A stretch of DNA of 64,000 bases from Candidatus Culexmicrobium cathedralense (lineage in GTDB: Archaea; Thermoproteota; Methanomethylicia; Culexarchaeales; Culexmicrobiaceae). Under the pieces are notes generated by a model that was not told the origin of the DNA, did no database searches, and worked only from the letters and a program-made list of their open reading frames with translations. Below, in pieces: positions 6,321 to 32,572 of this stretch; the first letter of the stretch is position 1; every line of letters starts with the position of its first letter. Position numbers and translations under genes: made by a program. The stretch covers positions 135,171 through 199,170 of the forward strand of contig JANZKC010000004.1 of the NCBI GenBank assembly GCA_025061115.1, read 5' to 3'.

Positions 6321-6967
6321 TTCCCACTTTTGATGAAGATATACACGTATTTGCGACCCCTAACGCTAACTGCTCTACTAGAATTTTTGTCAAAGAGAGG
6401 TGCGGGAGCTAGGATCACGTTCTCTCGATTTTCATCAACAAATTTAGCAAGAAGCTCCTCGAAAACTTTTGAGCTCAAATTAAGCTCCTTAATAATGCAC
6501 TTTCTTACCTCTACAATAGGCACGTACTTAGACCGCATATTTCTTGAAATCTTCCTGTAAGTCTCAATTATTTTGTCCATAAAAAGCGAGTAAATTTCTC
6601 TTTGCTTAGCTGGTGAAAGATAAAGTACTTCATTCAGCAGCCTAAGCGAAATATCCACAACTAACGCATTAAGACCCGTCTCTTCAGCTATACTTTTAAT
6701 AGTCGTAAATCCACCAAAGTATGCATTTGCAACTCTCTCATACTCCGGCAGCCTCAAGAGATACTTATGTAAAATGTCTCCCCGCTTCTCACTATATGCT
6801 TCCAAAAAGATCTTGCCATCCTCAGTTATGGAGTAGCTTTCTCCATTATACGTTGCAAGCTCCATTTTTAACAAGGTATGAATCGCTTCAGAAGATCCAC
6901 TATAGGCTTTACCAGCAGCAATATTGCTTAATGTCCTTATCAAGGACTTAATGGTAACTGGTCTCAA
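6314..6967 (-). CDS. multi-winged-helix DNA-binding protein (putative)
   Basis: YSITEDG wing, TIKSIAEETGL HTH, C-terminal VPIVEVRK..LNLSSKVFEELL wHTH-like segment; overlaps the ATPase gene. Confidence 0.55.
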   Translation of the reverse strand: MRPVTIKSLIRTLSNIAAGKAYSGSSEAIHTLLKMELATYNGESYSITEDGKIFLEAYSEKRGDILHKYLLRLPEYERVANAYFGGFTTIKSIAEETGLNALVVDISLRLLNEVLYLSPAKQREIYSLFMDKIIETYRKISRNMRSKYVPIVEVRKCIIKELNLSSKVFEELLAKFVDENRENVILAPAPLFDKNSSRAVSVRGRKYVYIFIKSGKW

Positions 6968-7049
6968 TGTCCTATCACCAGGATTTCCAGTACATTTGGC
7001 ATTATGCTAATATATTGCTCTAAATCTAAAAGTTTTACGGGTACTCCAA

Positions 7050-7214
7050 ATGTTTAGTGAAGAAGAGGAGATAAAAATACTAGGTACTTCAAAAATTACG
7101 AGACGTTTCCAGGTGACAATAATTAAGGAAGTTAGAGAGCTCCTCAAAATAAAAATCGGAGATATCCTCGTATTTGAAAAGCATGGAGATAAAGTGATAA
7201 TCAGAAGAGGTTGA
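7050..7214 (+). CDS. AbrB/MazE/SpoVT-family DNA-binding protein (54 aa, absent from ORF track)
   Basis: Hand translation: MFSEEEEIKILGTSKITRRFQVTIIKEVRELLKIKIGDILVFEKHGDKVIIRRG*. Confidence 0.85.
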   Translation: MFSEEEEIKILGTSKITRRFQVTIIKEVRELLKIKIGDILVFEKHGDKVIIRRG

Positions 7215-7220
7215 CCACAA

Positions 7221-9104: not shown

Positions 9105-9522
9105 GGATTCTTCCCTTAAAATTACACGACCTGTTATGCCTTATTTTTGTTGTGATTAAGCAAGACTATTTCATTTTTCTTTTATAATAATTTAAAAAAA
9201 TAATTTATTTAACTTAGTATCATTAATTAAAAATTTCATAAAAATGTAAAATTAATAATAGATATTGAGAAATAGTGTGATAGATATGATAACAATAATT
9301 AAAGCTATTTATATTAACAATTTATATTAAAAATCAAGTACCTTGAAAACATTAATGTTAGAACATGTTCATATTAAAGTTTTGTTGATAAGTTCTGACG
9401 CATTTTTTCTTCGGAAATTATATACGACATTCATAATGCGCCTCAAATTAAAATTTGCTCAGTTTTCTATCCAAAATTATACTAAAACTTTTAAGTTTTT
9501 GCGAGAAATTTATTTATGAACC
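9105..9522. promoter_or_regulatory. very AT-rich divergent promoter region between the two defence operons
   Basis: 418-bp ORF-free gap between head-to-head starts, with many TATA-like runs. Confidence 0.6.
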
Positions 9523-12500: not shown

Positions 12501-12720
12501 AATCTATAATATTAGCGAAAGTGGAGAACCGGTTCTCAATGAAGATTTGAAAACAATACTCAAAAGAAATTCAAATCTTAAGAGTTTGCGTGATCAACTT
12601 CAAAATTATATAACTCAATTACAAGGCGCGCTAAATGACCTAGGCAGGTACCCCATTAAACATGACTTCAAGAAACTGCTCACTCTCCTTGATGAGATAA
12701 ACGAGATGATGATGGTATGA
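9523..12720 (+). CDS. large P-loop ATPase with helical/coiled-coil C-terminus (DpdH-like)
   Basis: Walker A APYGSGKST, Walker B LLLIDEVEE, GGRPG motif; ~1065 aa; first gene of the helicase-PLD operon. Confidence 0.7.
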   Translation: MKLILSFNEISRLGKHSWKNLTDEHKKLSEDLIISIKDYLENKKKRHYAHVIVAPYGSGKSTLLDYLAYYTWKELKRPAIIANMNRILEYINNKYKKETKGKLPEDKLPDILEEFFKDSLIMLKNIILHENNVPLPLRSIIPLNDIISIIDTFLQKNIRGLLLIDEVEEALKQLKNTINYVTSPFRGLFDAIYNTTSKIYVVIAFGPQSVLMEDILGLSSGWRNVVKSIPLSSPSMIFNELQRLLPNEEKKILRLLSNTLWWISKGGRPGWVYNFIEQSFPRKVIHCLKNFNEKKELIYDDELLKALKKEVVKGIPCFSEYDYMNILNFLPSDSYIERNLFKVLLVLIGPLSENDIRSLGINYDRCIKLNPKIFVVGDKLIPYDAFITAVRRDLEKVAKSRKALDYRDGKIIERAINLLALVFSAWSAFVNKIPMILDERDAWQELKDIAADLSREMYDTETARLIENFEIRWLKIPKEAYTPDGIVYVAMHPRIIENIYPPIFSIPLIGKARLDGIDEVYPFLRDQDLEYLSELAQQLFGILAHILSNQKNQVKDVAEKYLLVPIIDGSNLNKIKEYIFNSKLNGKHPILIPLSPSGEKLKKTIDLLKKELKSFDELQITTILERISPRMSIFVLGILYDIAHQGKNEILYTESEEGLARIERRILESYSRQLLLILYEAIMETKRAISLQELLPDYVLELCKKLDEQAHSKLGSKRAEDLWCVLASQKTIEIYEKIIECLNEINHLTSDLVEIIYPDEREIIKGLLVKKGALDYVRDAKSLFEKLSKCLRDNNTFNMLKLILEDVLNQEKYIDSLFNRIQHSLKEIFKEIEYKSVWYALTSYLTHMLADQCSNPYIKGLNGKDLQFEKSKLKIKLGKLKDKLNINKLKELANLMENYHLPQFIEMLRERLEKFEKVLNKLKSLIEDLKPTNIYEKWTYTVAFIKKEAERSFMENITTILENLDSKLLGSYASYLTQISDIFTKTIPDLKSRIYNISESGEPVLNEDLKTILKRNSNLKSLRDQLQNYITQLQGALNDLGRYPIKHDFKKLLTLLDEINEMMMV

Positions 12721-13961
12721 TAAAAGGAAAAGCAATTGATTTCCTTAAAAAAATAAGTAATGAAAGACGTGAAATTGAACAACACTTAAAAGAGTCATTA
12801 GAATATGCAGAAAAAATTAAAGAAATTATAGAAAATTATCCTGATTTTTGCAACCATATCCGAAGACCATCTAAGCCGAAAGGGTTATGTCTAGATGAAA
12901 TAAAGCAATGTAAGAATGAACTACAAGAAATTTATATTGAGCTAATTGCTACAGCTGTCTTGAATAGTTTAAATATGGATTTTATTACTAAATCATCACT
13001 TATAGGCATAGTCCAACCTATAGCTGAAGAAATCCATGAAGGAGTCTTGTCTTTTAAAAACCTAATAATGCCAAAAGAATTTGGTATAGCTTTGTCAGAA
13101 GCTATATCGAGCTACGATCCTAATGTTGTACGTTCTGTTATCAAAAGCCTTTATACCGAGGATTTAGAAAATATTATGAAAATTAATGATGTAATTTCTA
13201 AGGTGAAGAAGAATGCAATTACATTTTACGGTAAAGATCATGCGAAAGAAATAGAAGAATTGTTGCTTAACTTGTTAAAACATTATGTGAGAAAGATTTT
13301 TGATAAAGAGGTAACTGTAAAAATAATGCTCGATGAAATAAAAGAACTTCAAGAACTAATACATGAAGCATATGTTATGACAACAAATTGTAATGCTATT
13401 TCTATACCTCGAACTAATGTATTAAAGAATTATATGATTAGGGCCTTCGCAACAACAATATGTGATTATCTGAATAAACTTATTAAGACGTGTCATCAGT
13501 TACAAGAATTGCCTAAACAAAGTAAATGTACTAAATGGAAAGAAAATATTGAAAAAACATTAAAAAATATTAAGCTTCTTATTAGTGAAATTGAAGATGA
13601 AAAATATTCTAAATTATTTAAAATACAAAAAATAATAAATAAATTAGATATATCTAATAACATTAAAAATAATATCGCTTCCTTAATACAAAAAATGTTA
13701 CAAAAAAATGGGCATTTAAATGAAAAACTTTGGTTAGAACTTGATGAAAAGTTAAACAATATTTTTAGAGGAACGATAAATGACGAACAACAAATATTAC
13801 TTAATGTAATTTTTTCAATGTTAACTGATGAAAAACGTGAGATGACTATTATAGAAATAATTGAACATGCCACGAAGAAAGTGGCTAATAAGGATAAGAT
13901 GCTTAAAGCGTTGTATGAGCTTTGTGAAAAAGGCTTGGTAGAGTGTTTTGTAAGGGTGTAG
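12717..13961 (+). CDS. helical/coiled-coil protein with possible C-terminal wHTH (in the DpdI position)
   Basis: ATGA overlap with the ATPase; C-terminal MTIIEII..LKALYELCEKGLVE wHTH-like pattern. Confidence 0.55.
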   Translation: MIKGKAIDFLKKISNERREIEQHLKESLEYAEKIKEIIENYPDFCNHIRRPSKPKGLCLDEIKQCKNELQEIYIELIATAVLNSLNMDFITKSSLIGIVQPIAEEIHEGVLSFKNLIMPKEFGIALSEAISSYDPNVVRSVIKSLYTEDLENIMKINDVISKVKKNAITFYGKDHAKEIEELLLNLLKHYVRKIFDKEVTVKIMLDEIKELQELIHEAYVMTTNCNAISIPRTNVLKNYMIRAFATTICDYLNKLIKTCHQLQELPKQSKCTKWKENIEKTLKNIKLLISEIEDEKYSKLFKIQKIINKLDISNNIKNNIASLIQKMLQKNGHLNEKLWLELDEKLNNIFRGTINDEQQILLNVIFSMLTDEKREMTIIEIIEHATKKVANKDKMLKALYELCEKGLVECFVRV

Positions 13962-13965
13962 ATTC

Positions 13966-16593
13966 ATGCCTCTTCCCGTTCCCCCTAAAAATATTGTAGA
14001 AATATTTACCACTAATGGTCGTAGTGAGGATTTTGCTAAAAGATACGTTGCTAATGCTATTTTATCATTAATTGAAGAAAAAGAACAGCAACATATACAA
14101 AACCTGGATTATGATGCTTGGGTAAAACTTTCTTATAAAGATATATGCGAGAAGATTATAGAATATGTGAACCATTTTGCTCGTGCAATTAATTCAAGGG
14201 GTTTGTCGTATGATGATGTAAACCATTCTGAACTATCTGAATATATAGCATGTGTTCTTTACACATTTGCGTCAGAAGGTATTTATGAGGCGCATCATAG
14301 CCGCTACATAATAATAAGGGGTGAATATGATGTTAATGCAATTAAGGATAAATTGACGAATAGCTTTCTAGAGGTCAGAAGTAGGTTTATTGAAATCGCA
14401 CGTAACCTTGTGAAAGTAAAACAAAGATTTTGGAATACATCGATATATGAGGCAAAACCATTGATAGATAGAGTTTTTGCATACGTTGAACCAAGGTTTT
14501 TACCTATTGATGTTGTTGATATATATCAAATTTTGGATGCCCTGGCTGAGAGAGTTAAAGTATTATATGAGGTTTTTTGTGGGAAGTTACGTAAAGAAGA
14601 GAATTCTCAAACAAAGGATTTCCTTGGGGAAGTTGTAAAAAATTTTCTTCAAAAAGTTATAAAATTTAGGCTTTACGAATATCAGGTGCGAGGATTAATA
14701 CAAATTTTAAATAACGTTAAAGATTGCATCGATAAATGCGTGGAAAGAGCAGTAGTATTACAAGCACCAACAGGTTCCGGAAAAACTGAAGCTTTCGTTT
14801 TGTCGATTATTCTTGCTTCTCTTGCGTATAAAGCCGCTTTAGATTGGGATAATAAATCACCTGCTGCGCTCATTATTTACCCGCGTAGAGCTTTAGCAAC
14901 AGATCAACTGAAACGACTAATTACTTATTTATTCCATATCAATAATGTACTTAAAGATGTTGGTAATAGGAGAAAACAAAAGTATGCCAAGTTAAGGCTT
15001 TCAATTAATTATACTGAAATAAGACCTATGAGAGAATATGAGGCTTTAGCAAAAAAGGTTCAACAAGAGAAGCCTAGAGAGTGGAAAGAATATAAAATGA
15101 ATTACATAAAGGTATTGTCGAAATATAGCAATGAAGGTGAAGTTTTAGTAAAATTGCCATTTCTGTGGCTACCTGAAAGTGATGAAAATCCCTGTATTGT
15201 AGTCTCATCAGACAGTTACATATGGTATAACCAGGACATGGATTTTGTTACAGTAACTAAAGAAGATGTTTATGAAAAACCAGGCGACATTCATGTAACC
15301 CTATTTGAGACCTTGAGAAATAACTTAAGAAATAAAAGAGCACATCCTATTTTTGGTTTTCCTTATGAGTATGGTCCCTTTATAATTGTATTAGATGAAG
15401 TGCATACTTATATAGGCATAACAGGCGCAAGATACGCGTATCTTCTCGATAGATTATTAATGGTTATTAAATGCCGTACCAATCGCCATACAAGAGGTGT
15501 TTTGTTTGTATGTGTAAGTGCTACTGTACCTAATCCTGAAAACTTTATAAAAAAATTATTAGCTGTAAAAGAATTTGCCATAGTGTCTCCGAGAGAAGCA
15601 GAGACTATCCCCCTTGGGAACGAATATTTCTACGTAATAATTCCTACGACCAAATATCTTGTAAACCACTTAGCAGTTTCTATACAAGCTGCTATGGTTC
15701 TGCATTTCAATATACCTGCATTAATTGAAGAAAAAGGAAAGAAAAAGAAGAGTTTTATCTTTTCGGACAACCTTGACGTCATCGAAAGATTTCGAAGAGA
15801 CTTTGGAGATGCCATTAATAGAAAATTGCAAGATCTCAGAAATCCCCTAGATCCTGCTTTTTACGATAAGACGATTAAGGAGTTTGGTGATGGACTATGT
15901 TGGAAAGAAGCACTTGATAAACCGTGGTTACTAGAATACCTTAAGTCGTGGAAAGAGGGTGAATATTGGTGGCCGTATGCATTGGAGAAAAAAGAGGGAT
16001 TAACATTTGACAAATTATCAAAATATACGGGACCTGAAAAAGGAGATGTAAAAGAGAGTGATATTGTCGTTGCAGATTCTGCGCTGGAGTTAGGGGTGGA
16101 TTATAGGGATGTTGTCGTAATATATCAACACGGCATTCCATTAAGTATTGCTTCATTAATACAAAGAGCCGGACGTTCAGGTAGAATTGTGCGAGACAAC
16201 CCCCTTGTAAGGGTGGCTGTAGCAGTAATGTTATCTCCATACATCCCTTCACAGGCAGCTCTATTCCAACTTCTTATTAGAAGCGAATCATTAAGGAATG
16301 TTCTTGAATATGAAAGTTTGAATATACCTGTTGGCAATAAGAAATTAATAGCTCAAACTATAGTGGAAAGTATTTTAGATTATATGTCGTTAAAACCCCA
16401 ACACTTAATGAGGTTTGAAGATATCGAAAAAAGATTACTTACATTCTTAAATAAAGAGGGGCGCTCCATTGTTCAATATATTAAAGATATGTTGAGGAGG
16501 CGTGCGGTTATGCTAAAACTCGAGATAGATGATGTGATAAAAAGCACATTAGATACATTAATCGAAGAACTGAAAGATGCTTGGGAGGCTTAA
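13966..16593 (+). CDS. SF2 DEAD/DEAH-box helicase (DpdJ N-terminal part / DrmA-like)
   Basis: Q motif LYEYQ, APTGSGKTE, IYPRRALATDQ, LDEVH, SAT, ALELGVD, QRAGRSGR. Confidence 0.9.
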   Translation: MPLPVPPKNIVEIFTTNGRSEDFAKRYVANAILSLIEEKEQQHIQNLDYDAWVKLSYKDICEKIIEYVNHFARAINSRGLSYDDVNHSELSEYIACVLYTFASEGIYEAHHSRYIIIRGEYDVNAIKDKLTNSFLEVRSRFIEIARNLVKVKQRFWNTSIYEAKPLIDRVFAYVEPRFLPIDVVDIYQILDALAERVKVLYEVFCGKLRKEENSQTKDFLGEVVKNFLQKVIKFRLYEYQVRGLIQILNNVKDCIDKCVERAVVLQAPTGSGKTEAFVLSIILASLAYKAALDWDNKSPAALIIYPRRALATDQLKRLITYLFHINNVLKDVGNRRKQKYAKLRLSINYTEIRPMREYEALAKKVQQEKPREWKEYKMNYIKVLSKYSNEGEVLVKLPFLWLPESDENPCIVVSSDSYIWYNQDMDFVTVTKEDVYEKPGDIHVTLFETLRNNLRNKRAHPIFGFPYEYGPFIIVLDEVHTYIGITGARYAYLLDRLLMVIKCRTNRHTRGVLFVCVSATVPNPENFIKKLLAVKEFAIVSPREAETIPLGNEYFYVIIPTTKYLVNHLAVSIQAAMVLHFNIPALIEEKGKKKKSFIFSDNLDVIERFRRDFGDAINRKLQDLRNPLDPAFYDKTIKEFGDGLCWKEALDKPWLLEYLKSWKEGEYWWPYALEKKEGLTFDKLSKYTGPEKGDVKESDIVVADSALELGVDYRDVVVIYQHGIPLSIASLIQRAGRSGRIVRDNPLVRVAVAVMLSPYIPSQAALFQLLIRSESLRNVLEYESLNIPVGNKKLIAQTIVESILDYMSLKPQHLMRFEDIEKRLLTFLNKEGRSIVQYIKDMLRRRAVMLKLEIDDVIKSTLDTLIEELKDAWEA

Positions 16594-18911
16594 AATTGTT
16601 CAAATTAAGTCATACAAAGGTCTTATGCAGATATCTCCCTCCTACTCTATTTATGGAAACAAATCTACCTGCCGTTAAAATTAAAATGGGGAAAAAGAAC
16701 GTGAGGAGTGAAGATATTGAACTATCTTTATCAACATATTTACCAGGAAAAGTAAGCTTTAGATGCGTTCCTGGTCTCATAGTACCTATTTATAAATCTC
16801 GTAAACGCAGGAAAAATAAACTTGTAATTATCACCGATAAGGTATATGAGCTTAGAAGCCCACTGTTAAGCTCTCATGAAAAAGAAAAAATTAGAGAAGA
16901 ATTGCCATTTTCTTTTAAGGTTTATCTAAATACGTTTGGGCTTCCATGGAAAGTAGACTTTTATAGGCTTGGCGGTGTTAATGCTCAGCCTTTTCTTTGG
17001 AATAACGGCTATCACTGGATGTTGTGGTTGACGAAAGAGCATATGATGTCAATAGTTTTTGAAAAGAAAGATATTGAGAACATTCTCAAAAGATATAGAA
17101 TCAAAAACATATACTTTCTAACAGAAAGATCAACTGTTTATCCGCTATTTAATTTGACAGTACTTAAATCTCTTGAAAAAACAGCTAATACTTTGCAATC
17201 TATCGCTAAAAGGCTGGGTTTCAATTTTATTGAAAGTGACGTGAGTTATTACTCAGCTGATATATTTAAGTATCTTTACGCTTTAAATTTAGAACTTGAA
17301 GTTCGCGCTGTCAGATCCTCTCAATATAATAACTCTTGTTCTCTACCCCAGCTTAGAAAAGTTACAAGGTTTAAACGAAAAATCATAGGTACAAGGATAC
17401 TTGCTAGGGATGAAGATATGTTGTCTCCTATATTGTTAGGATTTAAAATTGAAGATACCCCTTTATTGAAGTTAACTCCCGATGTTGAAGAGTTTATAGA
17501 GTATTTTTTAAAGAAAGGCTCGCAATTAATAATTCAAGATTCTTTATCGGGTTATACGAAATATGCTATAATAATGGACTTGACTATAAATCAACTTTTA
17601 GGAGATATAGGTTGCCATAAATTGCTTACCAATTTAAATCATGTTTTTTCGTATTTTGATATTTTCTGCAACGAACCAATACTTGATATTATTGAAAATG
17701 GAGATAATCTGTTTCACTACCTTCTGTGGTTTGACGAAAAACTAAGTGAAACAAGTAAATGCCCTGCAGATCTTTTGATATTTAAAGAGATAATTGGCGA
17801 ACGTTTATCGTCTTGTAACTTTTTATCAAAGATAAAAAAGATAAATCAAAGTATTAAAGAGAAAATCGAGAACAGACTAAAGGAAATTTCAAGTCAAGTT
17901 AAAGAAGCTAAATTTAATATACTAATGTCAATTCTTAATCATACTTTTAGTCACCATTTTCTTAAGGCTATAACTTTTAGAAGTAGTGTCAACAGCAGAT
18001 ACCTCGGAGAAATTTATCATTCATACTTTACCCATCCCAATTCTGGGAAATATAAATCGTTTTATATATATGAAATATCATCAGGAGGCGTTGGAGCCCT
18101 TGAATCTGTTGTAAATACTTGGCAAACAGATAAACAGAGTTTCATTATTGATGTCTTATTGCAAGCAGGGTCGTGTATTATAGGTATGCCTGAAGATTTG
18201 GTCTATAATATGCTACTTAAGAATTATAAGCCGCCTTCATCGATTGATGAGGCGAGATGTTATGTTATACAGGGACTCAAAGACGTAGATCTTCTAATAA
18301 CGCCTGAGGAGTGTGAAGAAGCTGCGAGATTATCGTTTAGTATAACCAAGGAATTTGATATGAGAGGTTGGGACATTGCTAAAGAGGTTGCTTACTGTAG
18401 AAGGGCGCTTGAAGATAAAATTAAAAGAACTGCCTTATCTCATGAAATATGCATTAATGTTCTTAAGAACCTTAGCTCTTGTAAGAATTGCAAAGAAGTG
18501 CTTGAAGAAATCATTCAAAGGACAAGTGAAGCACAGGGTTGGAATGTTGACGTAGAAATTCTAGATGAAATAAGAGAGGCTCTTTTCAATGTAGAAAACA
18601 AATTAGTCGAAAAAATAAGGAAAGGTGATAAAAGCATGAGAAAAATTGTAAGAGAAATTGGAAGGATACTAGAGGCGGCTTTACTGAGATTTGTTCTTAC
18701 ATCATGTCCAACAGCTTGCGGTTGGTGCTATATTAACTCTAGTGGATGTAGTGAAAGCTCAGCACCATGGCTTCAAGCATTGACTCTAAATAGGAGATTG
18801 TTAAAACACTATGCTACATGGACATTAAAGAGGGTTAGAGATAAGAGAAATGAAGGTCTAACCTTAGCTTCAGTAAAAATTGGAGGAGACGTAATAAAAG
18901 TAATAGGGTAG
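16581..18911 (+). CDS. DUF1998-like protein (DpdJ C-terminal part / DrmB-like)
   Basis: HTFSHHFLKAI, YIYEISSGGVGAL and C-terminal CPTACGWC..C zinc cluster typical of DUF1998. Confidence 0.75.
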   Translation: MGGLKLFKLSHTKVLCRYLPPTLFMETNLPAVKIKMGKKNVRSEDIELSLSTYLPGKVSFRCVPGLIVPIYKSRKRRKNKLVIITDKVYELRSPLLSSHEKEKIREELPFSFKVYLNTFGLPWKVDFYRLGGVNAQPFLWNNGYHWMLWLTKEHMMSIVFEKKDIENILKRYRIKNIYFLTERSTVYPLFNLTVLKSLEKTANTLQSIAKRLGFNFIESDVSYYSADIFKYLYALNLELEVRAVRSSQYNNSCSLPQLRKVTRFKRKIIGTRILARDEDMLSPILLGFKIEDTPLLKLTPDVEEFIEYFLKKGSQLIIQDSLSGYTKYAIIMDLTINQLLGDIGCHKLLTNLNHVFSYFDIFCNEPILDIIENGDNLFHYLLWFDEKLSETSKCPADLLIFKEIIGERLSSCNFLSKIKKINQSIKEKIENRLKEISSQVKEAKFNILMSILNHTFSHHFLKAITFRSSVNSRYLGEIYHSYFTHPNSGKYKSFYIYEISSGGVGALESVVNTWQTDKQSFIIDVLLQAGSCIIGMPEDLVYNMLLKNYKPPSSIDEARCYVIQGLKDVDLLITPEECEEAARLSFSITKEFDMRGWDIAKEVAYCRRALEDKIKRTALSHEICINVLKNLSSCKNCKEVLEEIIQRTSEAQGWNVDVEILDEIREALFNVENKLVEKIRKGDKSMRKIVREIGRILEAALLRFVLTSCPTACGWCYINSSGCSESSAPWLQALTLNRRLLKHYATWTLKRVRDKRNEGLTLASVKIGGDVIKVIG

Positions 18912-18915
18912 TTGG

Positions 18916-19692
18916 ATGATCATGTTCTTCATTTACAGAACCATTGGATCAAGTAAGATAGAACAAGCGTTTCTTGACCTTTTTTACGAGGAGTTTTTAA
19001 CTGAGGAACATGATGATATCTATATAATCTCACCATGGATAACACCATTTAGTTTCTCTAAAAAAATTGTAGTATACCCATACATAGTTGCTGATAACAT
19101 TGTAGATGTATTGTTAGGGCTAGTAAAGATAGGCGTTAAAGTTAAGATTCTAACGCGTTGTATTGATGATCTGTTACCTCTTGATAAACTGTATTTAGTG
19201 GATCTTATATTACAGTCCGCAGGTGACGAAGTTAATTACAAAGTGCTACGTGAAATTTATGATTATTTGATAAATGATATTAAATGGGCAATAAATCGTA
19301 TGAAAGCGATAATTCTGCTTTCTAAAAGTGGAATAGAAATAAGGTACGATGTAGGTGAAGATCTTTATTCAAATAGACTTCACTCAAAAATGTATGTGGG
19401 AAGTAAAAAAGCTATTATTGGCTCTGCAAATCTGACACAGAGCGGTATTGTTGATAATAGAGGAAATAAAGAATTCATATTAGTAGTTGATAGAGAAGAG
19501 CCTTTATACGAGAAAATACGAGAAGCTGCCATAAAGTATTTCGAACAAGGATATAACTTTGAAAGATGTGAGAAAAGAATTATTAGAACAATAAATCGCA
19601 TACTTACTGAGAAGTTCATAAGCCTCAACGATTTTATGAAATACATGGAAAGAGTTCTAATATCTATCAGTCCAAAAACCAAATACCGTTAA
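18916..19692 (+). CDS. phospholipase D-family nuclease (DpdK/DrmC-like)
   Basis: IYIISPWI, single HxK motif LHSKMYV..AIIGSANLT..G..N.E. Confidence 0.85.
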   Translation: MIMFFIYRTIGSSKIEQAFLDLFYEEFLTEEHDDIYIISPWITPFSFSKKIVVYPYIVADNIVDVLLGLVKIGVKVKILTRCIDDLLPLDKLYLVDLILQSAGDEVNYKVLREIYDYLINDIKWAINRMKAIILLSKSGIEIRYDVGEDLYSNRLHSKMYVGSKKAIIGSANLTQSGIVDNRGNKEFILVVDREEPLYEKIREAAIKYFEQGYNFERCEKRIIRTINRILTEKFISLNDFMKYMERVLISISPKTKYR

Positions 19693-20387: not shown

Positions 20388-20636
20388 TTGGCGGTTGTGA
20401 ATATTGACAGTAGAGGCAGGCTCACCATACCTAGAAAGATGAAGGTGAAAAGCACGAGAGCCATAATAATTCCAGCCGGAAGCTTCTTCATAATAATTCC
20501 CATCCCCCCAAAGCCCATCAACTACGCTAAAAGCTGGTTGAAAACAAGCAAAACCCGACGCGAATTAAAGAAAATGGCAGAAGAACTAGCCAAGAAAGAT
20601 GCAGTCAAGAGAGCCGAGAGGAGGAAGCAGCAATGA
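20388..20636 (+). CDS. vapB: AbrB-like VapB antitoxin
   Basis: IDSRGRLTIP AbrB motif; ATGA-coupled to PIN gene. Confidence 0.8.
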   Translation: MAVVNIDSRGRLTIPRKMKVKSTRAIIIPAGSFFIIIPIPPKPINYAKSWLKTSKTRRELKKMAEELAKKDAVKRAERRKQQ

Positions 20637-21055
20637 TGATCGAAACAGACATCCTCTACGCCTACATTAAACCCAAGGACCGGCTAAAACCCACCGCAGA
20701 AAAATTAATCGAAAAAATAGAGCAAGGCGAACTCGGAGTAATTTACGCTTCAAGAGAAGTACTACACGAACTATATTACATATCCATGCAGGAAGGAATC
20801 TCCCTAAGCGAATTCATAGCAAGAATCTCAGCCATAACGGCCATAAACAACCTAGAATTCATAGAAACAGACCACATAATAGACCTACTAGCCTTCACCC
20901 TAATGCAACAATACAAACTAACATCCCTATTTGACGCCTACTACGCAGCAACAGCACTAAACAAAACCAACGACCACACAATAATCTCAACAGACAACAC
21001 ATTCGACAAAATACCAGGCCTAAAAAGAATAGACCCAAGAGAACTAGTCAAATAA
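20633..21055 (+). CDS. vapC: PIN-domain VapC toxin
   Basis: MIETDILYA, VLHEL, SLFDAYYAATAL, IISTDNTFD. Confidence 0.9.
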   Translation: MMIETDILYAYIKPKDRLKPTAEKLIEKIEQGELGVIYASREVLHELYYISMQEGISLSEFIARISAITAINNLEFIETDHIIDLLAFTLMQQYKLTSLFDAYYAATALNKTNDHTIISTDNTFDKIPGLKRIDPRELVK

Positions 21056-21182: not shown

Positions 21183-21449
21183 TCATCTAATCAACTTTAT
21201 GAAAGCTTTACTCTTAATCTCTTTAGGAGGCAATTCATCAGCTATGATGTGGAAGCTTAATCTCACCAAACCACTTTTTCCAATAACCTTAACCCACAAA
21301 ATTTTTATTTCTTCATCTTTAAATCCTTTATTTCTGAAATATTCAAAAAATTCATCTTTGTATACTTCATCTCTGCCATAATGTTTAAACAATTCTCTAA
21401 CAAGTTTTCTCAATTCCTTTAAGCTCATCGACTTGATTCTTTCACTCAC
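21183..21449 (-). CDS. small hypothetical, possibly winged-helix protein
   Basis: 88-aa ORF, co-oriented just downstream of the LAGLIDADG-like gene. Confidence 0.55.
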   Translation of the reverse strand: MSERIKSMSLKELRKLVRELFKHYGRDEVYKDEFFEYFRNKGFKDEEIKILWVKVIGKSGLVRLSFHIIADELPPKEIKSKAFIKLIR

Positions 21450-21478: not shown

Positions 21479-22852
21479 CTATTTAATATCTTCAGCAATT
21501 CTTCCAAATATTTCTTCAAATTTTCTTACTCTCCATTCTTTAGGCATTCTACTGGGTATTGAGTTGATTTGTTTCTTAATTTCTATTATTTCCTTTTCAC
21601 GTAACTTTCTTCCTCTATACTTTAGAAATATTTCATATTGTCTTCTAAGTCTCTCATCTTTCCATGTGCCTGGCAGTGCACCGTACTCCCTAACTATTAT
21701 GTCTATTGCCTTAGGCTTATCCATGTATGCGCGCCATAACACGGTGAATCTGCCTTCTTTACTTAGTTGCATTCTCTCTGGATATGCTTCAACAAATCTT
21801 GGTTCAACTTGTTTTTTATACAACTGGTTTAGGAGGGCAACTTCTTCATTTATTAATTTTGGTTTATTTCTTTCAATGACTTCTAAGATGTCGCTCGACA
21901 TTTTTTCATCTTCGATTTTATCCATTAATTTTCCTAAAGCTATTCTTCCTACAGGTCCAATAATTTCTTTCAGCTTTTCTTTTTGCTCTTCTGTGAGTTT
22001 ATCGGTTATGTCTATTCCTCTAGCCCATGAAATTCTCATTGCAACTCTTCTTCCCTTGACTCTTACGATGCTTGTACCCTCTTCAGTTAGTGTGGCTTGG
22101 AAGTGGTATCGCTGCAATTCTGGGTCGACGTAAACTTTGGGGTCCAGCGAGGGATTAGTAACGGTCTTCGCTCCAATGGGTATGCCTGCCCTATGCAGTA
22201 TCCTAGCAGTCGCCGAGTCGAGGTATGTTACGTAAGCGTTTTTGTCTTCCCGATATTTGGGCGGCTTCAACCGTGGGGCTCCAAGCTGTCTAAGTAAGTC
22301 CATGACGTACTTGTGGAGAGCGGGGTCCTTATTGATGTACTTAGCTTTTGGCTGCCTTCGGTTAGTTCTAAGCGAAATTGATCCTTCATTTAAAATGTGG
22401 GTTTTCAGCTTAATCAATGCTCGGCTCCTCAAGTTCACTGGAAACTTCCTCGTGAATACGGCTCGCTCCTCAAGCAGATTCGGATCCAACCCAAATCTCT
22501 TGCAGAGCTCCAGCAGCTCCCCAACTTTAATTTTAACGGTTTTTCTGCCTTCCGGAATTATTGCTCTCCAGCTCAAGTTGAATTCTTCGAGTAGCTGCTT
22601 AAACTTCTCAGCATTCAACTCAACATATGCGCTCGGCGGCTCATCATACCAGTGGTAGAGGATTTTGCTGAGCTCCTCCCTTATGATGCTGAGGCTCCTC
22701 TCAAGCTCCTCGCCGAGCTTCCTCCTCAAAGAGGCTGAATCCAGAATTTCGCCTGTCTCAGCAAATATTCTGTCAAGTAGCTTTTGCTCCCTAAGCCTTC
22801 TAGCCCTAGCCCTTAGGGACAGCTTATACTGACCCAAAGCTTTCACCGACAA
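21479..22852 (-). CDS. LAGLIDADG homing-endonuclease-like protein (two degenerate motifs)
   Basis: LIKLKTHILNEGSI..KYINKDPALHKYVMDLLRQLG and YHFQATLTEEGT..RISW resemble the two LAGLIDADG helices and downstream strands; no intein splicing motifs. Confidence 0.6.
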   Translation of the reverse strand: MSVKALGQYKLSLRARARRLREQKLLDRIFAETGEILDSASLRRKLGEELERSLSIIREELSKILYHWYDEPPSAYVELNAEKFKQLLEEFNLSWRAIIPEGRKTVKIKVGELLELCKRFGLDPNLLEERAVFTRKFPVNLRSRALIKLKTHILNEGSISLRTNRRQPKAKYINKDPALHKYVMDLLRQLGAPRLKPPKYREDKNAYVTYLDSATARILHRAGIPIGAKTVTNPSLDPKVYVDPELQRYHFQATLTEEGTSIVRVKGRRVAMRISWARGIDITDKLTEEQKEKLKEIIGPVGRIALGKLMDKIEDEKMSSDILEVIERNKPKLINEEVALLNQLYKKQVEPRFVEAYPERMQLSKEGRFTVLWRAYMDKPKAIDIIVREYGALPGTWKDERLRRQYEIFLKYRGRKLREKEIIEIKKQINSIPSRMPKEWRVRKFEEIFGRIAEDIK

Positions 22853-24635
22853 GCTTCAAGCTTCCATCACGGTCAACCAGTATGGCTTTGAACAAGTCTT
22901 CCATTTTCACCGTGCCTATCAAGTGCTCGGGAGGTATTTGCCAACATCCAGTCAAGGCGATTCCACACTCGTAATCTATGAGTGCCCTATGCACGTGGCC
23001 CATGATGAGCCAGTCAACGTGGCTGGACGCCTTATACTCAAGCATTGCACTCTTAACTACGTCAAGCTTCTCCTTAGGATTCAAAACAACCTTGTGGCCG
23101 TAGAGAGCCAGCGCAACTCTGCCGTCGGGAAGCCTAATCAGCAACTCCTCCTTAGCCCGCCTGTAAAGCCTGTAGAAGTCGAGCAGCACATTTGCGGTGC
23201 GGTTAGCTTCAAGCTGAGCTTCACCGGCGAAAATCAGCGATGAATGTGTCTGACCATAAGCTAATTCGTCCAAAGCCTTCAGGAAGCCACTTAAATCGCC
23301 GTCGCAGCACCCTCCAACAACGTGAACCGTGCACTTAACCCTCCTAACTGCGTCGAACAATAATGCTAGCTGGCTAATTGAGGGGCTGCCAAACCTAAAG
23401 TCGAAAACGTCGCCGAGCAAAATCAAGTGGCGAGGCGAAACCTTCAAGATGAAGCGGGCGAACTCCTCAAGCCTAGACTCAGCAGTCCACCCATGAACGT
23501 CAGAAGCAATAAGCGCAACCTCACCCCAATCAATAACCAAATCGTAAAGGCTGCATTCATGCATGAATCCGCGCTCACCCATAGACTTCAACTGATTAAA
23601 ATTGTGAAGAGCCCTAACATGCACGTCCTCAGCAAGCCTATGAGAGCCAAACCTAACGCAGCTCGGGCAGCTGCAAGCCAAATACTTGCATGAAGCATCA
23701 ACCGCATCATCATCCACATACAATTTATGGCGAACAGCATCGAGATAATAGCTGTAGCCAGCCACGCTCAGCTTCTCAATACACCTAAAAACTTCGCGAA
23801 CAAACCTCAAAGATGAAGGGCGAAGACCACCAACAACAAGCAAACTCTCAACCCTACCAGCCAGCTCGTCGGCAAACCTGTAAAGAACATTCCTAGCATA
23901 AGCGTCAAACCTCAGCCGACCCAAATACTCAGAAGCATGAACACAGAAATTCCTAAAGCCAAACCTAAGCAGCATATCAACGCTAAACCTAATTTGATTC
24001 GAAGTATTCCCCTTAACCATAGCGATAACCGGCAAGTCAAGGTAAGAAAGCCTATAGGTAAGCTCCAGGCCCTTAACCAAGTTAACCCAAGACCAGTAAA
24101 GAGGCATGTCAACATAAACAGGCGCATCCCAACCAACAACCGCATCAAAACCACAAGCAACAGCAACCCAACAAAAAAGCCGAAAAACATCATCCCGAAT
24201 AAGAAGCTCATCAGGCATAATCGAAGACAAAACAACAATCCCATCAAACCCCAAAAAACCATGAACACCCCTCTCAACAACCAAGCGAAAAACACCCAAA
24301 TCCAAAAGATCAGTAAAAGGAACAATAACAGCATCAACACCCAAATCCCTCAAAAACCCACGCAAACCACCACTCCTCAACGAAACAATCGGAACCAACT
24401 CAGGCAACACAATAGACTTAACATCCCGCCTCTCCGCAGCCTTCACCCAATCAACCAAAGAATCAACCTCACTCCCAGACAAATCCCAAAAACAAAACCT
24501 AAACCCACACAACAAACACTCATCAACACCCCTCAACGCAGACCCAGAAACCCTACAACCAAACCTGCCAGAATAAGAACAAACACCAACAAAAGGACAA
24601 CCAACACAACCACCATCACACCGCAAACGCAACAA
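22824..24635 (-). CDS. Cys-rich N-terminus + TGT/DUF4417-like barrel + calcineurin-like metallophosphoesterase fusion
   Basis: N-terminal CxxxCxxC..C and CxxC..C; GFDAVVGWDAPVYVDMP, MVKG and CSCPSC..ALHN (TGT zinc site); C-terminal SDVH, LLGDVFD, GCCD, YGH, MGHVH phosphoesterase motifs. Confidence 0.7.
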   Translation of the reverse strand: MLRLRCDGGCVGCPFVGVCSYSGRFGCRVSGSALRGVDECLLCGFRFCFWDLSGSEVDSLVDWVKAAERRDVKSIVLPELVPIVSLRSGGLRGFLRDLGVDAVIVPFTDLLDLGVFRLVVERGVHGFLGFDGIVVLSSIMPDELLIRDDVFRLFCWVAVACGFDAVVGWDAPVYVDMPLYWSWVNLVKGLELTYRLSYLDLPVIAMVKGNTSNQIRFSVDMLLRFGFRNFCVHASEYLGRLRFDAYARNVLYRFADELAGRVESLLVVGGLRPSSLRFVREVFRCIEKLSVAGYSYYLDAVRHKLYVDDDAVDASCKYLACSCPSCVRFGSHRLAEDVHVRALHNFNQLKSMGERGFMHECSLYDLVIDWGEVALIASDVHGWTAESRLEEFARFILKVSPRHLILLGDVFDFRFGSPSISQLALLFDAVRRVKCTVHVVGGCCDGDLSGFLKALDELAYGQTHSSLIFAGEAQLEANRTANVLLDFYRLYRRAKEELLIRLPDGRVALALYGHKVVLNPKEKLDVVKSAMLEYKASSHVDWLIMGHVHRALIDYECGIALTGCWQIPPEHLIGTVKMEDLFKAILVDRDGSLKLVGESFGSV

Positions 24636-24825
24636 ACACCCAACCCCAAAATAAAATCAACAAAAACACTTTAAAAAATAATCACCAAAAACACAAAAAT
24701 AAAACAACAATAAATCACAAAAAACTTATATAGCCCAAGAAAAATTTCTAAAAGACGAAGCGCCCACACAAGACCAAAAGCAAGCATTTAAAAAATTAAA
24801 CAAAAAATCAAAAAACATTAAAAAA

Positions 24826-24903
24826 GCCCGGGTGGTGTAGTCAGGCCTAACATACGGGCCTGTCGAGCCCGTGCCCCGGGTTCAAATCCCGGCCCGGGCG
24901 CCA
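24826..24903 (+). tRNA. tRNA-Asp (GUC), intronless, CCA encoded
   Basis: Acceptor stem GCCCGGG/CCCGGGC, anticodon arm CGGGC-CTGTCGA-GCCCG, T-loop GGTTCAAATCC, GCCA end, T-run downstream. Confidence 0.97.
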
Positions 24904-25577: not shown

Positions 25578-25795
25578 TTAATGTATGATTAAGATTGTAT
25601 ACCATGTTGTTACTTCAATACCCACCGTTTTAGTTCTTCGATGTTCATTTGATGATTAGATTTATAAGGTAATTCTCTTTTGCATCGTATATTTGATATT
25701 AATCTAAATGTTAACATGTATGTTTTAAAGTATAATTTATCTATGAATTTTCATGTTGTGCCGTTAAATTTTTTAATGTATTTCTTTATTTTTAT

Positions 25796-26308
25796 TTGAT
25801 GAGTGTTGAATCTGAAGTAATTAAGAGGCCTTTGGGTGTTACTGCTCTTATTATTATTTGTTTGTTTAATGTTGGGCTTTCAATTATTTTTTCTTTCTTT
25901 AACTTGCTTGTTTTACCCATAGTTATCTTGAACATTTTTTGGGTTTTAGGTTTGTATGGGGGTTATAAGGTTATTTGGATGGCTTCTCTTGTGCAGTTAC
26001 CCTTTTCTTTTATTGTTTTAGCTTTATTCTTTTCATCATTTTTATTTTGGATTATTAATGGCATTCCTGAATTTGAATATAATATTTCTATGATTTGTTA
26101 TATGTTGATAACTATTGGAATAATGCCTGCAGGGCTAGGCCTCTTCTTAATATTATTAATCAATATGCTTAGCCCCCCAATCTACAACATACTCACTTCT
26201 ATAGAACCATTTAACCGGTACTTAGCTATCGTTATATCCTTCATATACGTAATCATTACCATAAATTATCTAAAAAAGGAAAAAGTTAAAAAATTTTTCC
26301 TAAAATAA
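25796..26308 (+). CDS. multi-pass membrane protein (copy 1)
   Basis: KRPLGVT motif and several hydrophobic helices; paralogous to 27614..28150. Confidence 0.75.
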   Translation: MMSVESEVIKRPLGVTALIIICLFNVGLSIIFSFFNLLVLPIVILNIFWVLGLYGGYKVIWMASLVQLPFSFIVLALFFSSFLFWIINGIPEFEYNISMICYMLITIGIMPAGLGLFLILLINMLSPPIYNILTSIEPFNRYLAIVISFIYVIITINYLKKEKVKKFFLK

Positions 26309-27559: not shown

Positions 27560-27613
27560 ACTACTCTTTTATTTCTATAATTAAGGAATGTTTAAACACA
27601 AAAATATTTTTAG

Positions 27614-28150
27614 ATGGATTTTTATTTTTATGTGATGAATGTTAAATCAGAAGTAATTAAGAGGCCTTTAGGTGTAACTCTTCTCACAATTGTTTGTCTA
27701 TTCAATGTTGGGCTTGCAATCATATTCTTTCTCTTATCCTACAATTTAGTTGCTATTCTCCTAGCTTTGCTGAATGTTTTTTGGGCCTTAGGTTTATATG
27801 AAGGGAAGCGGATTGTCTGGACGGCATCGCAAATACAACTGCCTATATCCTTCGCAATGCTAACTTTATACTTTACATCAATTTTATTTTCACTCATTGA
27901 ATGTATGCCGGAAATGGAATACATAATATCAACAATAAACACTACTTTAACAGCACTAGGGATAATGCCTGCAGGATTAGGGTTCTTCCTAATATTGTTA
28001 ATTAATATGCTCTGCCCATTAATCTACAACATGCTTACTTCTATTGAACCATTTAATCGATATTTAGCCATTATTCTGGCTCTCGTATACATGGTCATTA
28101 CAATAAATTATCTAAAAAAGGAAAAAACCAAAGTGTTTTTCCTAAAATAA
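27614..28150 (+). CDS. multi-pass membrane protein (copy 2)
   Basis: Shares SEVIKRPLGVT, GIMPAGLG, LTSIEPFNRYLAI and INYLKKEK..FFLK with copy 1. Confidence 0.75.
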   Translation: MDFYFYVMNVKSEVIKRPLGVTLLTIVCLFNVGLAIIFFLLSYNLVAILLALLNVFWALGLYEGKRIVWTASQIQLPISFAMLTLYFTSILFSLIECMPEMEYIISTINTTLTALGIMPAGLGFFLILLINMLCPLIYNMLTSIEPFNRYLAIILALVYMVITINYLKKEKTKVFFLK

Positions 28151-31379: not shown

Positions 31380-31559
31380 TCACATGATGCGACTGGACGG
31401 GTTGTTGTTGCAGCCAATCGGCACCATTGCAGAAACTTTCCATCATTTCCATCAGCCCATCGAGGTTCTGCAATGATGATTCATGATAAATTATTTAGCA
31501 GAGAAATTGGAAATACTGAAAACGATAACCCCCATAAATAGGAGATATATAAGCTTTCA
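31380..31559 (+). promoter_or_regulatory. CRISPR leader
   Basis: Non-coding, abuts the first intact repeat, TATA-like GATATATAAG near the repeat; 10-bp inverted repeat CATTGCAGAA (31425-34) / TTCTGCAATG (31466-75). Confidence 0.7.
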
Positions 31560-32572
31560 GAATCTCATTAAAAGAGAATTGAAAGGAGGAGATTCTCACT
31601 CTAGCTCAGAAGTACTTCTCTCTCAGAATCTCATTAAAAGAGAATTGAAAGGTGGTAGACTATGGGAACAGATGTACAGTCTAACTCAGTATGAATCTCA
31701 TTAAAAGAGAATTGAAAGATAGACATAGACCTCACGCCTCAAGACGAAGACGACGAGAGAATCTCATTAAAAGAGAATTGAAAGACGTATTCCTACAAGC
31801 AGGTTCACTAGCATATAACGACTTCGAATCTCATTAAAAGAGAATTGAAAGTTCTTTGAGGCGGGACCACAATGCCAAGACTTTGTACTGTAAGAATCTC
31901 ATTAAAAGAGAATTGAAAGATAAGTACTTCCACCAAGTCCATATCTGTTGTCTGTCTCAGAATCTCATTAAAAGAGAATTGAAAGTTCCAAAATTTTGCG
32001 AGAATAAATATACGCGAAGAACGAATCTCATTAAAAGAGAATTGAAAGTGAAGCCCATCGCTCTTAATCTGTTGATAGACTTTTCAACGAATCTCATTAA
32101 AAGAGAATTGAAAGAAACTGAAGCAACAGCGCTACAACAGCCACTCCAATCAAGAATCTCATTAAAAGAGAATTGAAAGGTAGCTCAACTCTTTCCAGCT
32201 GTACTTTCCATCTAATGCAGAATCTCATTAAAAGAGAATTGAAAGCAAAAAATGAGGGGAACTTGGGTTGAAGATTAATCAGGAATCTCATTAAAAGAGA
32301 ATTGAAAGAAGAAATCAAACCATGAACCCGACAAAGCCCCAAACCACTAAAGAATCTCATTAAAAGAGAATTGAAAGCTATTTCTTCAGCTAATTCCTGT
32401 TCAAGCGGAAAAACTACGAATCTCATTAAAAGAGAATTGAAAGCAAACTTGATTATACCAGCCAATCACGTTGTCAATGTGAATCTCATTAAAAGAGAAT
32501 TGAAAGAACATAATAACATGAACATGCATAAGTCCGGTCTTTGTGAGAATCTCATTAAAAGAGAATTAATAG
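31560..32572 (+). CRISPR. CRISPR array: 16 repeats (GAATCTCATTAAAAGAGAATTGAAAG, 26 bp), 15 spacers of 37-43 bp
   Basis: Repeats start at 31560, 31626, 31693, 31759, 31826, 31894, 31960, 32023, 32089, 32154, 32220, 32283, 32352, 32418, 32481 and 32547 (last degenerate, ..ATTAATAG); the ATTGAAAG 3' handle and degenerate trailer give the orientation. Confidence 0.98.

Follow-up and report, generated by a model that had tools for sequence, protein, structure and literature searches.

Gene content of the locus

The stretch analyzed here (hereinafter the window) comprises 64,000 nucleotides (nt) of contig JANZKC010000004.1 of Candidatus Culexmicrobium cathedralense, an archaeon of the family Culexmicrobiaceae. 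On its minus strand it carries a compact cassette, whose largest gene (the target gene) encodes a protein combining a Cys-rich module, a tRNA-guanine transglycosylase (TGT)-like barrel and a metallophosphoesterase domain, and is followed by a gene for a LAGLIDADG endonuclease-like protein (the partner) and by a small third gene. The cassette consists of the following features, with lengths and residue numbers in amino acids (aa):

22824..24635, minus strand: target gene encoding the Cys-rich module, the TGT-like barrel and the metallophosphoesterase, 603 aa
24486..24635, minus strand: N-terminal Cys-rich module, aa 1-50, with eight Cys, recognized by its sequence pattern
23565..24422, minus strand: TGT-type (beta/alpha)8 barrel with a C-terminal zinc site, aa 72-357, recognized by profile, fold and alignment
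22827..23528, minus strand: metallophosphoesterase domain, aa 370-603, recognized by Pfam, profile and fold
21479..22837, minus strand: partner gene encoding a free-standing double-LAGLIDADG endonuclease-like protein, with a probable TTG start and the N-terminus M-G-Q-Y
21183..21449, minus strand: small third cassette gene, 88 aa, kept past the partner gene in loci L001, L002 and L014

The open reading frame (ORF) 22824..24635 is a real, conserved gene. Its homologues number 12 at an expectation value (E) ≤1e-3 among 5.8 billion clusters, all of them from archaeal metagenomes or metagenome-assembled genomes (MAGs), and of the 1.84 billion representatives searched with a profile of the family, 805 proteins scored E≤1e-3, 56 of them E≤1e-30. 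Where translation starts is uncertain: the first start past a stop codon is TTG at 24635, while a 98% identical homologue, P0003, begins a few codons downstream. Every motif named in the initial annotation of the gene, which had been made from the sequence alone, is present in the 603-aa translation. The AlphaFold2 model of the protein has a mean predicted local distance difference test (pLDDT) value of 83.6, with residues 1-44 below 50. A further third-gene family, C2, found at loci other than that in the window, matches no Pfam family and has no named relatives in the Atlas.

G+T richness on the coding strand of the target gene falls off in an extreme gradient from 5' to 3'. The first 200 nt consist of 7% A, 7% C, 39% G and 47% T, and normal composition is reached by about nt 1400; in G+T richness the gene ranks first among the 1226 long ORFs of the genome (0.84 vs. 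a mean of 0.52 with a standard deviation of 0.07). The same gradient occurs in the homologues of two other genomes (L031, L002) and does not occur in the Brockarchaeota copies. The ten genes most extreme in this respect genome-wide encode membrane proteins and unrelated enzymes, with no common class among them.

A TGT-type barrel without the catalytic aspartates

The central domain folds as a TGT-type barrel whose zinc site is intact and from which both catalytic Asp are gone; on this the family profile, Foldseek, VIA-align and the hidden Markov model (HMM) alignment bear out the initial annotation. The family profile matched the archaeosine TGT of Pyrococcus horikoshii (ArcTGT, 1iq8) with E 4.3e-10 over 300 positions, and in the Foldseek search with the target model TGTs accounted for 50 of the 50 PDB matches listed (1iq8, E 2.9e-10). 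In VIA-align, the target superposed on ArcTGT with Z 20.7 and a root-mean-square deviation (rmsd) of 2.9 over 280 aligned residues; the Z values of the barrel were 18.7 with bacterial TGT, 17.0 with DpdA (7ui4) and 15.8 with QTRT2, and Cap10 (9ntn) gave Z 12.2, rmsd 3.6 and 242 aligned residues. The barrel carries the motifs W169-D-A-P-V-Y-V-D-M-P178, V-K208-G209 and C321-S-C323-P-S-C326 with H344-N345, while its catalytic stretches have been altered to L136-S-S-I-M-P-D142 and S290-V-A-G-Y-S-Y296.

The active-site residues were mapped by HMM alignment to ArcTGT and checked on 26 full-length members, on which all conservation figures for the family are based, as well as on wider relatives. The general acid/base D95 of ArcTGT corresponds to S137 of the target, which is Ser in 26 of the 26 members and is followed five residues further by an invariant D142. 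The nucleophile D249 corresponds to S290, and because neither Asp nor Glu occurs anywhere in S290-S295, its loss does not depend on the placement of gaps. The base-recognizing D130, by comparison, is retained as the invariant D170 of the W-D-x-P motif, Q169-G170 correspond to the invariant K208-G209, and H192 with the G-G-V segment corresponds to H233-A-S-E-Y. The zinc ligands C321, C323, C326 and H344 align with C279, C281, C284 and H307 of ArcTGT and are 96-100% conserved. In general, S137, D142, W169, D170, P172, K208, G209, H233, E236 and Y237, as well as G293, S295, C321/C323/C326, H344, N345 and the phosphoesterase ligands, are kept in 92-100% of the members. In PMC10164549, Asp95, Asp130 and Asp256 are described as invariant in TGT and DpdA, and the substitutions D95A and D256A as abolishing base exchange. 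Since both catalytic Asp are absent, the barrel cannot use the TGT mechanism; at the same time, the strong constraint on the pocket residues indicates more than simple degeneration.

The motif L-S-[ST]-[IV]-M-P-D is common to many stand-alone barrels of 290-400 aa recovered by the profile search, for which Pfam gives only sub-threshold TGT or DUF4417 matches. Two DpdA-like proteins are encoded elsewhere in the window; hhalign related the target family to the 297-aa one with a probability of 90%, and the comparison with the 627-aa one was insignificant (probability 3.6%). The Pfam PF01702 and PADLOC DpdA models match both of these genes and do not match the target barrel.

Cys-rich module and phosphoesterase domain

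The Cys residues of the N-terminal module follow the pattern C6-x3-C10-x2-C13-x5-C19, C27, C40-x2-C43-x4-C48. The arrangement C-x3-C-x2-C-x5-7-C(-x2-C) with a later C-x2-C-x4-C is kept in both fused and stand-alone relatives, the module being missing or truncated in six of the 26 aligned full-length members. The G+T-rich 5' part of the target gene by itself favors Cys, Val, Gly and Phe codons; nevertheless, the Cys pattern is kept in homologues of ordinary base composition. This recurrence argues for a metal or iron-sulfur (Fe-S) site, and the module probably binds a metal or, as we infer, an Fe-S cluster.

The C-terminal domain matched Pfam Metallophos_2 at 32.6 bits, with a cut-off of 27, and displays the motifs D379-V-H381, G408-D-V-F-D412, G442-C-C-D445 and G546-H-V-H549; its ligands D379, H381, D409, H514, H547 and H549 are 92-96% conserved. 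The change of GNHD to GCCD noticed in the initial annotation is indeed seen in the target at G442-C-C-D445, and it extends to the family: motif III reads G-C-[CSA]-D in 24 of the 26 members, with Cys in place of the metal-binding Asn; the other four motifs (D-x-H, G-D-x-x-D, G-H and G-H-x-H) are intact in the target. Cys at the His position of motif III is a trait of YfcE (G-N-C-D). The closest match of the domain was LpxH (Z 15.6, rmsd 3.0, 172 aligned; sequence E 1.2e-5 with 5k8k), followed in fold by Vps29 and YfcE (Z 14.5), PolD DP1 (13.6), MJ0936 (12.9) and Mre11 (12.8), and a single-sequence phmmer search of the PDB with the target returned weak LpxH tails only.

We could not find a description of a TGT-type barrel devoid of both catalytic Asp and fused to a phosphoesterase, in line with the earlier remark that no such protein was known. 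Neither Pfam nor NCBIfam nor PADLOC has a name for the architecture, and the literature searches, which covered publications apart from their supplementary files, returned no description of it. The Pfam scan of the target reported only Metallophos_2, with no TGT match at E≤1, the NCBIfam and PADLOC scans gave nothing useful for either the target or the partner, and the sole name attached to the target homologues by any source was 'metallophosphoesterase family protein, partial'. No paper was found that joins DpdA with LAGLIDADG or a TGT-like with a calcineurin-like domain, and queries combining transglycosylase, metallophosphoesterase and deazaguanine, or LAGLIDADG, transglycosylase and archaea, returned unrelated matches only. 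The DUF4417 literature, judged by title or abstract, contained nothing on the target family; the papers listed on deazaguanylation were confined to CBASS, Qat, QueC or reviews; and the main text of the QueC-family preprint PMC13082051 mentions neither LAGLIDADG nor Cap10 nor metallophosphoesterase.

The LAGLIDADG partner

With its probable TTG start at 22837, the partner gene overlaps the 3' end of the target gene by 14 nt, the first start past a stop codon being at 22852. Conservation of the LAGLIDADG partner, proposed earlier as a check, was confirmed: of the 27 related loci with a target-family ORF, 21 also have one of the partner family (22 of 28 when the window is counted). The partner ORF stands directly 3' of the target homologue in every locus with full-length genes, the ends of the two being from -14 to +7 nt apart in most. 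Judged from this arrangement of the sequences, the partner is translationally coupled to the target gene.

The partner consists of an N-terminal tail, a helical hairpin (aa 4-64 in the long ORF), small alpha/beta units and a LAGLIDADG core (aa 142-440). The partner-family profile found no match in the PDB, and it was the fold search that identified the protein: with a model of pLDDT 89.3, the best Foldseek matches were I-Tsp061I (E 1.5e-5) and I-OnuI variants, and VIA-align gave Z 15.6 with PI-PfuI (rmsd 2.7, 191 aligned), 14.8 with E-DreI and 11.9 with I-DmoI. The catalytic pairs N-E156-G157 and E-E258-G259 are preserved as acid plus Gly in all 16 short-form homologues, to which the count refers since the long forms are not reliably aligned. 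As both LAGLIDADG helices end in acid and Gly in all of these, nuclease activity is likely, and the partner is probably an active double-LAGLIDADG endonuclease.

In the family, the most constrained feature is the N-terminus. In 15 sequences of short and long forms taken together, the only invariant columns are G7, Q8 and one LAGLIDADG glycine, G259; the pair G-Q stands directly past the start codon in 13 of the 15 full-length locus ORFs and within seven residues of it in all 15.

Complete partner-family ORFs vary in length from 385 to 850 aa. The long forms (720-850 aa; Brockarchaeota loci L004, L007, L008, L010 and L018, ~11600-13000) contain long Glu-rich stretches encoded by GAG repeats and still start with G-Q right past the start codon.

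Predicted complex of the two proteins

Prediction of the target-partner complex resulted in a score of 0.65 (0.69, 0.65 and 0.60 in separate runs), the best of three controls reaching 0.01. The mark that the prediction passes is reached by 58 of 80 solved complexes and by two of 110 mismatched pairs. The runs had at least 82% of the contacts in common, with a partner pLDDT of at least 82. The predicted interface, which is listed per side, comprises residues 6-14 (the M-G-Q tail) and 50-65 (the hairpin) of the partner and residues 139, 141-142, 170, 172-177, 233 and 235-237 of the barrel. From the presence of both the tail and the pocket in this list we infer that the tail would contact the pocket, and the pocket of the model more likely docks a protein tail than reads a modified guanine in viral DNA.

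A sister system was found in Brockarchaeota, where a stand-alone barrel (Cys module, barrel and zinc site, with no phosphoesterase) is accompanied by a 300-aa LAGLIDADG_3 protein (E 2e-11). Of 28 full-length members of this LAGLIDADG family, 27 start with M-G, namely 22 with M-G-G-G-S/T, four with M-G-S-G and one with M-G-Q-Y. The hhalign comparison of the partner family with the sister LAGLIDADG_3 protein failed. According to bioRxiv 10.1101/2025.04.06.647259, the cGAS/DncV-like nucleotidyltransferases (CD-NTases) of the type IV cyclic oligonucleotide-based antiphage signaling system (CBASS) start with M(G/S)G(G/S)GG; their Gly2 carries 7-amido-7-deazaguanine, which is held in the nucleobase pocket of the TGT-like Cap10, and the Cap10 readers of this adduct are D73, S74, D122 and K154. 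In terms of sequence, the M-G-G-G-S start of the sister nuclease is the very motif held by Cap10 in type IV CBASS. Through the ArcTGT alignment, rather than directly, Cap10 D73/S74/D122/K154/D248 would correspond to S137/S138/D170/K208/S290 of the target, and H226 possibly to H233. The parallel with Cap10 is one of mechanism, an analogy with no kinship claimed.

Distribution and apparent mobility of the cassette

The cassette was found in five of 61 genomes (this one and 60 relatives, E≤1e-20), including two of the four other genomes of the same family. The genome studied contains one copy; two cassette-bearing genomes harbor several copies, some of them with stop codons, and one Brockarchaeota MAG contains at least five full-length copies of 45-79% identity. 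Fragmented copies occur in six loci. The cassette thus appears to be a patchy, accessory and mobile unit, and several loci bear traces of its insertion.

Loci L004 and L011 have a common four-gene backbone, into which the cassette is inserted either between genes 2 and 3 or between genes 3 and 4, depending on the locus. As it occupies opposite sides of one gene, each locus represents the empty site of the other. The L004 insertion is bracketed by an imperfect direct repeat of ~39 nt. In L008, the cassette is bracketed by an 86-nt, 99% identical direct repeat, the right copy of which is the 3' end of a complete archaeal signal recognition particle (SRP) RNA gene. Inside the left repeat of L008 (9099-9402) there are also fragments of 116 and 80 nt, 74-76% identical to internal parts of the second and third genes, which are left over from an earlier cassette at this site or from a tandem one.

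The following features adjoin the head of the cassette in the window:

24636..24825, minus strand: intergenic region of 190 nt between the target gene and the tRNA-Asp gene, 61% T and 5% C, presumed promoter region
24826..24903, plus strand: tRNA-Asp (GTC), divergent from the target gene

A tRNA gene lies ≤400 nt from a cassette end in five of 22 loci, as against 1.5 expected upon random placement in the same loci (P ~0.006), the counts not being independent, as L018/L023 and L020/L021 are homologous pairs. Rfam added the RNA-adjacent loci L008, L020 and L021 and, weakly, L003. Each of the eight RNA genes at cassette tails is convergent, its 3' end pointing toward the cassette, and three cassettes, that of the window among them, have a divergent tRNA 190-230 nt upstream. 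The adjoining tRNAs are those for Asp, Glu, Thr, His, Phe and Val. No further RNA gene was found at the tail of the window cassette, and no partial tRNA duplications were found at the other tRNA-adjacent cassettes. Synteny across the cassette site was unrecoverable when four genomes of the same family were searched for an empty site of the window cassette: apart from a part of the far right flank, over 1.5 kb away from the cassette, which G002 matches at 81% identity, all matches were tRNA-sized.

Genomic surroundings

Upstream of the cassette in the window coordinates there is an extended defense locus:

4498-19692: Dpd-like defense island

The island includes the gene of the 297-aa DpdA-like protein with a catalytic-type V-D-S motif, the 627-aa DpdA-DpdC(DUF6884) fusion, a BrxD/ATPase_2 gene, a 1065-aa STAND-like gene, a DpdJ-like DEAD helicase and a DpdK-like PLD nuclease. 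The genome has no strong QueC match, yet the DpdA-like genes of the window would need preQ0. Between the island and the cassette (20388-21055), an 82-aa ORF overlaps a PIN-domain gene, the two having the look of a VapBC-type pair. On the other side of the cassette, a 134-nt direct repeat of 78% identity (25766-25899 and 27602-27735) opens the paralogous genes 25796-26308 and 27614-28150, and positions 31536-32572 contain an array resembling clustered regularly interspaced short palindromic repeats (CRISPR), with 16 repeats of ~27-30 nt at 63-69 nt spacing.

The initial annotation drew attention to the Dpd-like island ~3 kb from the target gene. In this window the island is present as stated, whereas a functional link with it found no support: the neighborhoods of 14 other loci, scanned over 5-6 ORFs per side (132 ORFs in total), contained no DpdA or TGT gene. 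Two weak QueC-family matches among these ORFs (E 3e-5 and 4e-5) fell on NAD-synthase-like and ThiI proteins. The neighbors of the target homologues in the 14 loci are variable, mostly housekeeping genes.

Interpretation

Taken together, these data are read by us, with moderate confidence, as those of a mobile nuclease cassette in which an Asp-less TGT barrel docks the Gly tail of a LAGLIDADG nuclease, the phosphoesterase is active, and the role of the whole is selfish or defensive. The barrel would then be no transglycosylase and would serve instead as a docking module, holding the Gly-tipped N-terminal tail of the nuclease in the former nucleobase pocket, with the helical hairpin of the nuclease packed on the barrel; such docking would resemble the way Cap10 holds Gly2 of CdnD in type IV CBASS. 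The phosphoesterase would be catalytically competent, a nucleotide or a nucleic-acid phosphodiester being its candidate substrate. The complex as a whole would constitute a self-contained nuclease cassette that moves between sites, with a preference for those beside the 3' ends of tRNA and SRP RNA genes, and its role may be either selfish (homing or addiction) or defensive.

A number of points weigh against this reading. As regards docking, the interface output is a residue list per side without tail-to-pocket residue pairing, and both binding and docking rest on one structure predictor and on alignments built by ourselves; the complex prediction may owe its pass in part to the solved Cap10-CdnD structure (9ntn). 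Cap10 itself is only a distant structural match (Z 12.2 vs. 20.7 for ArcTGT) and was found by no sequence search; it keeps D73 and the nucleophile D248 and has no zinc site, the target being the opposite in these respects. A QueC-like conjugating enzyme was not found in the window cassette, and in this genome QueC (PF06508) has no strong match, the best one reaching 27.6 bits in ORFs resembling other PP-loop ATPases. As regards catalysis, the non-catalytic LAGLIDADG protein WhiA matches the partner at Z 13.4, on par with some enzymes, the Pfam LAGLIDADG_3 model gives the partner 12.8 bits against a cut-off of 22.5, and the phosphoesterase of the target copy has Y512 where 24 of the 25 other aligned members have His. 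As regards mobility and defense, neither an integrase nor a transposase was seen in the cassette, flanking duplications occur in two loci only, and the repeat search revealed neither a flanking repeat nor a tRNA-Asp attachment-site repeat at the window cassette, whose tRNA is at the head and not at the tail; the RNA-adjacency counts include the homologous pairs mentioned above. There was no PADLOC match, and of 193 pattern matches in IMG/VR viral contigs none was confirmed, a pattern-based result that is no proof of absence.

Many of the mobility data would also suit a plain homing element, in which the LAGLIDADG protein alone inserts at RNA-gene ends and the fusion protein is cargo or a repair helper (for end processing, for example) without specific contact with the tail. 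The retained LAGLIDADG catalytic acids, the insertion polymorphism, the 86-nt SRP RNA duplication, the RNA-gene adjacency and the diverged and decayed copies are consistent with it, and the Mre11-like fold is compatible as well. We nevertheless regard it as rather doubtful. The two families co-occur across 25-79% identity and again in the second, unfused pair, the complex prediction passes, and the cargo model offers no explanation of why conservation in the nuclease is highest at its N-terminal Gly motif; besides, a target duplication is not left by classical homing.

The initial annotation proposed that the barrel reads a (7-deaza)guanine, which the phosphoesterase cuts or dephosphorylates, in restriction of deazaguanine-containing viruses or in salvage, together with the Dpd island. 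In its favor, the barrel has retained its TGT fold, its zinc site and D170 and K208, the readers of the base edge; two DpdA-like genes lie within an island 3 kb away in the window, the phosphoesterase fold is also similar to the PolD DP1 exonuclease (Z 13.6) and Mre11 (12.8), and defense glycosylases attacking 7-deazaguanine phage DNA are known, according to bioRxiv 10.1101/2025.10.29.685425. Even so, a role as a reader-nuclease of deazaguanine DNA is unsupported by the wider data and appears unlikely: a Dpd or TGT gene was found in none of the 14 other loci (132 ORFs), where the two QueC matches are weak, this genome has no strong QueC match either, the best phosphoesterase matches are LpxH and YfcE rather than nucleases, and the partner is a LAGLIDADG nuclease, whose conserved Gly tail is predicted among the pocket residues. 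Since D170 and K208 are kept, the pocket may still bind a base or nucleotide. A housekeeping tRNA or nucleotide enzyme, i.e., a TGT paralogue that binds tRNA in the manner of ArcS or QTRT2, joined to a phosphodiesterase and with a functional tRNA adjacency, has in its favor the existence of tRNA-binding non-catalytic TGT paralogues (QTRT2, Z 15.8), the tRNA genes abutting the cassette in several loci and the mostly housekeeping neighbors, and is made very improbable by the presence of the cassette in five of 61 genomes and two of the four others of the family, the diverged copies (at least five in one genome) and those with stop codons, the differing anticodons of the adjoining tRNAs (Asp, Glu, Thr, His, Phe, Val) and the coupling of the gene to a nuclease-like protein.

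The mobile cassette with a docked nuclease tail has a bolder variant, to which we assign a low probability, namely that one complex combines archaeal control by nucleobase-protein conjugation with integrase-free self-insertion at tRNA and SRP RNA 3' ends. The N-terminal Gly of the nuclease would carry a base or nucleotide adduct read by the zinc-containing, Asp-less barrel; the fused Fe-S module and phosphoesterase would make or remove the adduct, switching the nuclease on or off, and the same complex would drive the insertion of the cassette beside the RNA genes. If true, this variant would represent a new kind of mobile element having neither integrase nor transposase.

Apart from the choice among these readings, two entities emerge from the analysis: an unannotated superfamily, represented by the 805 proteins found at E≤1e-3 and marked by the shared motif L-S-[ST]-[IV]-M-P-D, and a compact cassette that apparently inserts beside RNA genes without a recognizable recombinase. 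It becomes testable what the conserved Gly tail binds, by which route the cassette moves, and whether conjugation of proteins with nucleobases extends beyond bacterial CBASS and Qat. As controllable meganucleases, LAGLIDADG enzymes that bring their own regulator could also be of interest.

Comparison with known systems

With ArcTGT, bacterial TGT and DpdA the target barrel shares the fold, the C-x-C-x2-C...H zinc site and the base-reading Asp (D130 of ArcTGT, D170 of the target). ArcTGT is its closest match in both sequence and fold; unlike ArcTGT, the target has Ser at both catalytic Asp positions, H-A-S-E-Y in place of G-G-V and Lys208 in place of Gln, and instead of the C-terminal ArcTGT domains with the PUA domain it has the Cys-rich module and the phosphoesterase fused on. 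QTRT2, the non-catalytic subunit of the eukaryotic TGT, is similar to it in the TGT fold, the zinc site, the loss of catalysis and, as proposed for the target, the role of a binding subunit; it differs in that it pairs with a catalytic TGT and binds tRNA, whereas the target has no catalytic TGT partner. The phosphoesterase domain resembles LpxH, YfcE and MJ0936 in fold and metal-ligand motifs and differs from them in that the motif-III Asn itself is Cys and in its fusion to a TGT barrel.

The partner shares with the LAGLIDADG homing endonucleases (I-Tsp061I, I-DmoI, the PI-PfuI domain) and with WhiA the pseudo-dimeric double core, and it has both acid-Gly pairs. In contrast to the homing endonucleases, it is encoded by a free-standing gene of an operon rather than within an intron or intein, has ~140 extra N-terminal residues with the Gly-Gln tip and the helical hairpin, and is paired with a TGT-like protein.

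The Cap10-CdnD pair of type IV CBASS offers the nearest parallel to the proposed mechanism. In both systems, a TGT-fold protein forms an obligate pair with an effector starting with Met-Gly, and a Lys is placed at the base edge (K154 of Cap10, K208 of the target). In Cap10, the effector tail has been shown to occupy the former nucleobase pocket; in the target, this is a prediction. Cap10, however, works with the QueC-like Cap9, while the cassette has no QueC-like gene, and its partner is a bacterial CD-NTase and not an archaeal LAGLIDADG nuclease. If the docking is real, this would be only the second case, and the first in archaea, of a TGT fold turned from a nucleic-acid enzyme into a holder of the glycine tail of its partner, the partner held being a rare-cutting nuclease instead of a signaling enzyme. 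Compared with the Cap10-type use of the TGT fold, the cassette is new in the class of its partner, in its fusions and in the domain of life to which its hosts belong.

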